Shown: positions 23,465 through 24,601, counted from the first letter of the stretch. The stretch is DNA of 64,000 nt from Escherichia coli (GCF_044647545.1 NZ_CP172818.1), one strand, 5' to 3'. Notes: a model not told the origin generated them from the letters alone. Program-made: numbers and translations.

Positions 23465-24601
23465 ATGGTACTTAAAAAATTGATGGAACATATTTCTATT
23501 ATCCCCGATTACAGACAAGCCTGGAAAGTGGAACATAAATTATCGGACATTCTACTGTTGACTATTTGTGCCGTTATTTCTGGTGCAGAAGGCTGGGAAG
23601 ATATAGAGGATTTTGGGGAAACACATCTCGATTTTTTGAAGCAATATGGTGATTTTGAAAATGGTATTCCTGTTCACGATACCATTGCCAGAGTTGTATC
23701 CTGTATCAGTCCTGCAAAATTTCACGAGTGCTTTATTAACTGGATGCGTGACTGCCATTCTTCAGATGATAAAGGCGTCATTGCAATTGATGGAAAAACG
23801 CTCCGGCACTCTTATGACAAGAGTCGCCGCAGGGGAGCGATTCATGTCATTAGTGCGTTCTCAACAATGCACAGTCTGGTCATCGGACAGATCAAGACAG
23901 ATGAGAAATCCAATGAGATTACAGCTATCCCAGAACTTCTTAACATGCTGGATATTAAAGGAAAAATCATCACAACTGATGCGATGGGTTGCCAGAAAGA
24001 TATTGCAGAGAAGATACAAAAACAGGGAGGTGATTATTTATTCGCTGTAAAAGGAAATCAGGGGCGGCTAAATAAAGCCTTTGAGGAAAAATTTCCACTG
24101 AAAGAATTAAATAATCCAGAGCATGACAGTTACGCAATGAGTGAAAAGAGTCACGGCAGAGAAGAAATCCGTCTTCACATTGTTTGCGATGTCCCTGATG
24201 AACTTATTGATTTCACGTTTGAATGGAAAGGTCTGAAGAAATTATGCGTGGCAGTCTCCTTTCGGTCAATAATAGCAGAACAAAAGAAAGAGCCAGAAAT
24301 GACGGTCAGATATTATATCAGTTCTGCTGATTTAACCGCAGAGAAGTTCGCCACAGCAATCCGAAACCACTGGCACGTGGAGAATAAGCTGCACTGGCGT
24401 CTGGACGTGGTAATGAATGAAGACGACTGCAAAATAAGAAGAGGAAATGCAGCAGAATTATTTTCAGGGATACGGCACATCGCTATTAATATTTTGACGA
24501 ATGATAAGGTATTCAAGGCAGGGTTAAGACGTAAGATGCGAAAAGCAGCCATGGACAGAAACTATCTGGCGTCAGTCCTTGCGGGGAGCGGGCTTTCGTA
24601 A
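23465..24601 (+). CDS. yhhI: H-repeat-associated ISAs1-family transposase
   Basis: 378 aa ORF matching the recalled K-12 H-repeat protein YhhI; immediately downstream of the Rhs tip. Confidence 0.85.

Follow-up and report, generated by a model that had tools for sequence, protein, structure and literature searches.

The window, by which we mean the whole 64-kb stretch of Escherichia coli DNA that was analysed, contains the nik operon with nikR, followed in this order by rhsB, yhhH, the 5′ part of a yibA-like gene (yibA′), yhhI and yhhJ (Table 1). All the parts of an Rhs element were found at this place, namely a GC-rich core of YD repeats, a core end of the DPxGL type, an AT-rich tip and an immunity gene. 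The GC-rich core of rhsB runs from 18279 to 22019 and ends in a DPLGL motif at 22005-22019 (PxxxxDPxGL type), after which the AT-rich DUF4329 toxin tip begins. The GC content drops from 0.62 in the core to 0.36 across the tip, immunity gene and yibA′ and amounts to 0.40 in the insertion sequence (IS) that follows and 0.56-0.57 in the flanking backbone, in agreement with the GC-rich core and AT-rich tip that the first-pass annotation of this DNA had described.

The reading frame of rhsB is split into two ORFs (18279-19427 and 19506-22514) by a frameshift pair, in which a +1 insertion near 19421 is compensated by a -1 near 19484, with stops at codons 383 and 397. The pair sits in a patch of substitutions unique to the window sequence (19414-19484). 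It may mean that rhsB is truly a pseudogene here, or it may have been left by a recombination event or by an error in the assembly.

Downstream of yhhH, a 52-bp stretch that corresponds to the last 32 bp of the K-12 rhsA CDS plus the 20-bp spacer before yibA leads into the yibA-like HEAT-repeat gene. The coding sequence of this gene starts at 22974 and is cut by the IS after nt 347; its product is identical to YibA residues 1-117 (of 280) at 115 of 117 aa and matches positions 1-126 of the 285 positions of the profile NF007244. A fusion ORF (22959-23357) extends from yibA′ for 37 nt into the IS; exact look-ups recovered no protein record for either version of it, nor for the extended NikR described below. 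The transposase gene had been placed immediately after the Rhs tip and immunity region. This is indeed the classical position of an H-repeat, but the two are not adjacent, as 451 bp, which hold the 52-bp stretch and the 347 nt of the interrupted yibA-like gene, intervene between yhhH and the IS.

A query that reaches from the rhsB tip to yhhJ was matched over at least 80% of its length in 1885 of 5426 complete E. coli genomes, and all five loci that were fetched (5/5) are annotated with rhsB, yhhH, 'HEAT repeat/lyase, incomplete', yhhI and yhhJ. Because this arrangement from rhsB to yhhJ is shared, the gene in the window is the ortholog of K-12 yhhI and belongs to the H-repeat of RhsB.

Table 1. 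Coordinates of the features at the rhsB-yhhJ locus, counted from the first nucleotide of the window.
Feature	Coordinates	Strand	Basis
rhsB	18279-22514	+	RHS_core NF041261, RHS repeats, Rhs_assc_core; DUF4329 tip
yhhH, RhsB tip immunity gene, 127 aa	22486-22869	+	Pfam Imm-NTF2-2 (3.4e-25); 'protein YhhH' in orthologous loci
52-bp match to the region upstream of yibA, plus 5′ 347 nt of yibA′	22922-23320	+	98.5% nt identity to MG1655 rhsA-yibA (L003, 6286-6688)
Complete ISEc1 / H-repeat (H-rptB), 1291 bp	23321-24611	+	Inverted repeats, break in yibA, alignment of 11 copies
Left terminal inverted repeat (perfect core 23321-23331, CAGGGAAAGAT)	23321-23338	+	Inverted-repeat search
Candidate promoter TATACA-17-CATAAT with 7-bp hairpin (23439-23458)	23423-23458	+	Consensus scan, RNA fold
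Transposase ORF (yhhI ortholog), 378 aa	23465-24601	+	ATG start, 0 internal stops (ORF listing)
Right terminal inverted repeat (perfect core 24601-24611)	24594-24611	-	Inverted-repeat search
Junction spacer, A-rich and indel-rich, 37 bp, with a run of 10 A at 24617-24626	24612-24648		Alignment to K-12 type, BS-01, FDAARGOS_497
yhhJ (ABC transporter permease), nearest backbone gene on the distal side of the Rhs element	24689-25813	-	ORF listing, orthologous loci

Limits, family and transposase of the element

The best inverted repeat within 23150-24800 pairs the two termini listed in Table 1, with 15 of 18 positions matched and the outer 11 nt matched throughout (11/11). The exact 11-mer of this core occurs twice in the 64-kb window, both times at an end of the element and in inverted orientation; when up to one mismatch is allowed, 0.88 matches to the core are expected by chance in a window of this size. 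The left limit is independently backed because identity to K-12 yibA stops at 23320. The annotated ISEc1 copies have the same ends and are 97-99% identical to the window element over 1291/1291 bp. The ends of the element, which had been thought impossible to delimit by eye, can therefore be placed, and the inverted-repeat search near the ends of the ORF returned IS-like ends, so that an objection based on their absence falls away.

The element contains one ORF. Its 378-aa product matched the NCBIfam model NF033564, 'ISAs1 family transposase', at 4e-125 (417 bits; cut-off 70) over profile positions 1-314 of 314, the Pfam family DDE_Tnp_1_assoc at 7e-34 over positions 2-88 of 88 (residues 8-94) and DDE_Tnp_1 at 7.5e-31 over positions 3-200 of 200 (residues 102-343). 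Because both Pfam profiles and NF033564 are covered end to end, the transposase is full length, and the truncation that had been considered did not show on alignment. The protein sequence is exactly that of WP_400165081.1 from E. coli, and the RefSeq label of the orthologous gene is 'yhhI: ISAs1-like element ISEc1 family transposase'. Together with the NF033564 match, this label bears out the original assignment as an H-repeat (ISAs1-family) transposase.

We aligned the window transposase with six homologs fetched from plasmids, namely those of ISKpn31, ISAs12 and ISPa60 and those from Vibrio, Nostoc and Streptomyces. Residues D109, D172 and E306 were invariant in this seven-sequence alignment at 28-48% identity and, judging from their conservation, are the putative catalytic DDE triad. 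A sequence search of the PDB with the transposase found no relative. Like the window element, ISKpn31, ISAs12 and ISPa60 have a single DDE ORF with DDE_Tnp_1_assoc at the N-terminus, the invariant D, D and E and a length of 1.2-1.4 kb. The terminal CAGGG of the window repeat also begins the ends of ISAs12 and ISPa60, and ISPa60 has a 10-bp duplication, as do some ISEc1 copies outside the window. The three relatives differ from the window element in their proteins, which are 37-48% identical to its own, in their repeats of 17-29 bp and in their location on plasmids, whereas ISEc1 is almost exclusively chromosomal.

The members of the ISAs1 family in ISfinder are 1.2-1.5 kb long, have CAGGG ends and generate duplications of 8-10 bp. 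The size, ends and duplication length that we measured agree with these traits.

The element in the window is already known as H-rptB/ISEc1 of RhsB. The original description of the H-rpt, including H-rptB in the RhsB element of K-12, is said to be that of Zhao et al. from 1993 (J Bacteriol 175:2799). Like the K-12 copy (yhhI, b3484), the window element is 1291 bp long, lies in the order nikR-rhsB-yhhH-yibA′-yhhI-yhhJ, has a left junction in yibA that is the same to the nucleotide and encodes a 378-aa ORF, at 98.1% nt identity. The two copies differ at 25 nt, including a difference in the right repeat core, which is perfect in the window (TTTCCCTG) and matches at 10/11 positions in K-12 (TTGCCCTG). 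Further ISEc1 copies in E. coli, located at ydcC, at the rhsE side, in tssA and in rhs, have the same ends at 97-99% identity, and those at ydcC are the closest to the window copy (99.2%). For the locus as a whole, the best explanation, which we consider very likely, is that 23321-24611 is a complete ISEc1, i.e. the E. coli H-repeat of the ISAs1 family and the ortholog of K-12 yhhI in RhsB, and that this copy has lost its original right junction as proposed in the next section.

The ATG of the transposase lies 144 bp inside the left end of the element, and its stop codon (24599-24601) abuts the right repeat core. Ahead of the ATG, a 7-bp hairpin (CTCCTTA / TAAGGAG) was observed whose 3′ arm is the Shine-Dalgarno sequence of the transposase; the candidate -10 hexamer CATAAT forms its loop. 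Its RNA fold has an energy of -8 kcal/mol and a z-score of -2.4. In a putative regulatory role, the hairpin could block translation from read-through transcripts while sparing the transcripts of the candidate promoter of the IS itself. The promoter consensus scan yielded a number of sites not above shuffle expectation, and Rfam gave 0 matches over 17000-26000.

Near the start of the window (207-246), a perfect 12-bp hairpin (CTCTTTCCCTGC ... GCAGGGAAAGAG, 13-nt loop) contains a near match to the IS repeat. This hairpin, which lies between genes and resembles a terminator, probably has nothing to do with the IS.

Insertion into yibA and the distal junction

At the left junction, the window follows K-12 yibA up to ...GTCAACGGC (23320) and then enters the IS, whereas intact yibA continues with TCAGCGATGC. 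At the level of sequence comparison, this identifies the left junction as the original insertion point, after nt 347 of yibA. The check for a target-site duplication, which the first-pass annotation had proposed, gave a negative result at the window copy, the flanks of which are AGTCAACGGC and ATACAAAAAA.

Simple insertions of related copies do have such duplications. ISEc1 in tssA (L128, 1460-2750) has GTCAGTTGAC at either end, the copy within an rhs gene (L129, 1461-2750) is flanked by GGCAGGATGC and ISPa60 on a Citrobacter plasmid (L143, 275-1502) is flanked by ACAGGCGTTG; each of these is a clean 10-bp duplication, and the length of 10 bp rests on these three insertions. Elsewhere in E. 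coli, then, ISEc1 has transposed and its simple insertions retain such duplications; since the window copy has none, the outer junction in the window is secondary. Among the full-length ISEc1 copies examined in complete genomes and plasmids, eight, including that of the window, have no duplication and two have one. The missing duplication reflects the history of the window copy, and we did not count it against membership in the ISAs1 family. According to PMC3032704, which cites Zhao et al. 1993, transposition of ISEc1 was not observed experimentally; although activity has gone unseen in that sense, the 10-bp duplications in the genome data show that the element has moved by transposition within E. 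coli.

On the distal side, the homology of the window to K-12-type RhsB elements, which starts at 18262, stops at 24616, 5 bp past the end of the right repeat, and the backbone resumes at 24649, 38 bp past it. Because both lie so close to the right repeat, the IS marks the distal edge of RhsB, as had been claimed for it. The spacer to the right of the IS differs strongly among the window, the K-12 type and strain BS-01, and the IS is 77 bp away from yhhJ in the window compared with 164 bp in the K-12 type, which has a different and longer spacer; the history of this junction is therefore not simple. On either side of the element, the window sequence as far as 18216 and again from 24649 onward has 99.8-99.9% identity to that of E. 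coli FDAARGOS_497, a relative of the window lineage that, unlike the K-12 type, has hicAB between nikR and yhhJ. The window thus joins hicAB-type flanks (99.9%) to an Rhs cassette, and its junctions are present in no other complete genome. The right-junction type of the window was found in 0 of 5426 complete E. coli genomes, and a 38-mer taken from this junction had no match in the metagenome scan.

The rest of yibA is missing beyond the IS in the window. A right IS end joined to distal yibA occurred in 0 of 5426 genomes, so that an intermediate in which an H-repeat still has the two halves of yibA on its sides was not recovered from them. The uninterrupted yhhH-yibA arrangement, i.e. the 'empty site', is present in 1184 genomes; in the one example that was fetched, it is located at the RhsA site.

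We propose that ISEc1 inserted into the yibA-like gene after nt 347, downstream of the rhsB tip and yhhH, and that the original right junction, with the second 10-bp copy and the remainder of yibA beyond it, subsequently disappeared. A deletion adjacent to the IS end, as the most likely cause, would have fused the right end of the IS to sequence approximately 40-150 bp from yhhJ, and the outer IS end would thereby have become the distal border of the RhsB element. The IS would then be a passenger whose position determines how far the homology of RhsB with its paralog at the RhsA site extends, and it would not have moved the Rhs element. Four points speak against this proposal. The deletion is a step that we infer and did not observe, and the loss of duplications is common among ISEc1 copies and could be caused by recombination between copies instead of by adjacent deletion. 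To these are added the complicated history of the spacer to the right of the IS and the statement of PMC3032704 on transposition.

Recombination of this kind is a possible, although rather unlikely, origin of the junction: two directly oriented H-repeats, one in yibA and one near yhhJ, would have recombined by homology and deleted the DNA between them, leaving a hybrid IS with unrelated flanks. Opportunity for such an event is given by a median of five matching places per E. coli genome, and the prevalence of full-length ISEc1 copies without duplications fits it as well. The same holds for the distribution of alleles, as eight lineage-specific alleles of the window copy recur in strain 142, in its ydcC and rhsE-side copies, and only position 17, the left-most informative site, is held in common with the K-12-type yhhI. 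We read this sharing as an indication of concerted evolution among the ISEc1 copies within a lineage. The recombination partners were not recovered, however. The 10-mer of the K-12-type right flank was not seen at full identity ahead of any left IS end, with imperfect chance extensions as the only matches, and the 0 of 5426 genomes in which distal yibA follows a right IS end argue in the same direction. Because a deletion leaves no reciprocal product, this absence of partners is only weakly informative, and we retain insertion into yibA followed by IS-adjacent deletion as the preferred reading.

Copies of ISEc1 in other genomes and selection on the transposase

The window contains a single copy of ISEc1. 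A match to the element was found in 5342 of 5426 E. coli genomes, and 4935 of the 5426 have full-length matches that are 97-99% identical to annotated ISEc1; 84 have no match at all. The number of matching places reaches a maximum of 18 per genome, with 25718 places on chromosomes versus 28 on plasmids. The ORF is intact in 8 of 11 full-length copies, and two of the four yhhI orthologs examined have a premature stop at codon 60 in common. The dN/dS ratios range from 0.03 to 0.19 among six copies and from 0.06 to 0.19 for same-locus copies across lineages, and the window copy differs from the K-12-type yhhI by 16 synonymous and four non-synonymous changes. The possibility that the window copy is a dead IS relic was rejected on the basis of its intact ORF, the full-length profile match and a dN/dS of about 0.1.

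Purifying selection also bears on the question of whether ISEc1 is more than a passenger, in the sense that it prefers or persists in Rhs and type VI secretion (T6SS) DNA, that its transposase is kept by purifying selection and concerted evolution and that its ends recurrently form distal Rhs borders. The targets seen, which are yibA in the Rhs element, the start of an rhs core, the 3′ end of an rhs core, an internal rhs site and tssA, are relevant here. We consider this reading improbable; if it were true, an IS family would actively shape the ends of Rhs elements and the reach of gene conversion between Rhs loci.

It is likewise improbable that the yhhI transposase has been domesticated, i.e. 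that the host maintains it for a function at Rhs loci and not for transposition. The low dN/dS and the 16:4 ratio of synonymous to non-synonymous changes at this locus would agree with a maintained gene, as would the fixation of the locus in about a third of E. coli genomes and the statement in PMC3032704 that no experimental transposition was reported. However, the stop at codon 60 is shared by half of the orthologs examined, 84 genomes do without any match and the genuine 10-bp duplications elsewhere show that the element transposes; in addition, concerted evolution can import the purifying selection that acts on active copies. A rarely active IS fits the duplications, the dN/dS ratios and the concerted evolution better than a domesticated gene does.

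Variation among the copies is also seen near the left end. At IS positions 14-30 (23334-23350 in the window), two variants exist, ...TCA(A/G)AAGT(A/T)CACTTTTTGTAC and ...CGTAACGC(T/C)GCTTTTTTGTAC, and at one locus (L084) the first variant is represented by a left-end fragment of 34 bp that directly adjoins a copy of the second. When the 16-mer CAGGGAAAGATCATCA, a pattern too short for a search space of this size, was scanned over 298 Gb of contigs, nearly all of the 120 loci listed were chance matches, and the only real partial copies among them were L084 and L085. In a set of ENA metagenome contigs (L134-L139), the identical 378-aa transposase is called at ydcC as well as beside an Rhs(Ntox30)-nfrB locus, in varying combinations of left and right flanks. 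These combinations may stem from assembly chimeras across the repeated IS or from real exchange between copies, and the contigs were left out of the evidence.

The RhsA-site paralog and the borders of the Rhs element

The RhsA-site element of FDAARGOS_497 (L140, yibF-yibH site) and the window have 0 differences over the 3.8 kb from 19527 to 23320, compared with 40 differences over the first 1.25 kb (18278-19527). From its sequence, the identical part looks like a gene-conversion tract between the two Rhs loci, and its last informative site is 35 bp from the IS junction. The boundary of the mosaic near 19527 coincides with the frameshift patch in rhsB, and the identical tract ends at the IS junction. 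The limits of the IS explain why homology to the RhsA site, and hence gene conversion, stops at 23320.

The RhsA-site element (yibF-rhsA-yibA-...-yibH) resembles the window in its core and, in the FDAARGOS_497 lineage, also in the DUF4329 tip, yhhH and the 5′ part of yibA. It differs in that yibA is intact and followed by orphan tips and in that the H-repeat at its edge is an old internal fragment of 79% identity and not a complete IS. Such diverged internal H-repeat fragments (79-80%) were observed 65-75 bp from yibH both in MG1655, where the fragment is yibU (L003, 9947-10169), and in FDAARGOS_497 (L140, 14499-14730). Because H-repeat remnants are present at the edges of the RhsA site, the association of H-repeats with distal Rhs borders recurs. 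FDAARGOS_497 also has a full ISEc1 among the orphan tips, the right end of which lies inside the 3′ end of an rhs core.

The first-pass annotation had seen in the locus a composite mobile or recombinogenic element. Our data support a recombinogenic composite in the classical sense but not a mobile one, as neither a second IS end at the proximal border nor a bracketing duplication was found. One could suppose that the Rhs element as a whole was moved or integrated by the H-repeat, acting as a composite or one-ended transposon whose outer end would be the transposition junction with the nikR-yhhJ site. In favour of this are the outer IS end within 5 bp of the element border, the H-repeat fragments at the distal edge of the RhsA site, the hicAB genes at the nikR-yhhJ site in the closest backbone relative and the absence of the window junctions from all other complete genomes. 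We nevertheless give the idea hardly any credence: around the proximal border at 18.2 kb, with up to one mismatch allowed, neither another IS end nor a repeat of the CAGGG type was seen, no duplication brackets the unit, the IS is present as a single copy in 64 kb and the left junction with yibA′ is that of an ordinary insertion within a gene, which 1184 genomes have in intact form (at the RhsA site in the fetched example). To our knowledge, one-ended transposition has not been reported for ISAs1-family elements. As far as can be judged from the DNA, nothing suggests that the IS moves the whole Rhs element.

The locus has little meaning beyond its correct annotation and conforms to the classical RhsB/H-repeat arrangement. 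The limits of the element are nonetheless useful in that they keep the yibA′ fusion ORF from being taken as a real gene and show that the outer junction is secondary.

The site between nikR and yhhJ holds alternative cassettes, which are hicAB, a PTS/sugar-kinase island plus hicAB (in one fetched genome) and RhsB plus ISEc1 (loci L004, L007 and L001). In 1654 genomes, nikR and yhhJ lie close together, and hicAB was annotated in those that were sampled. At the proximal side of the Rhs element (18214-18278), the stop codon of nikR reads TGG instead of TGA, which makes NikR seven residues longer (WFRKKRY), and the spacer between nikR and rhsB is 43 bp long versus 203 bp in K-12-type loci, with a part that resembles the hicAB-type spacer.
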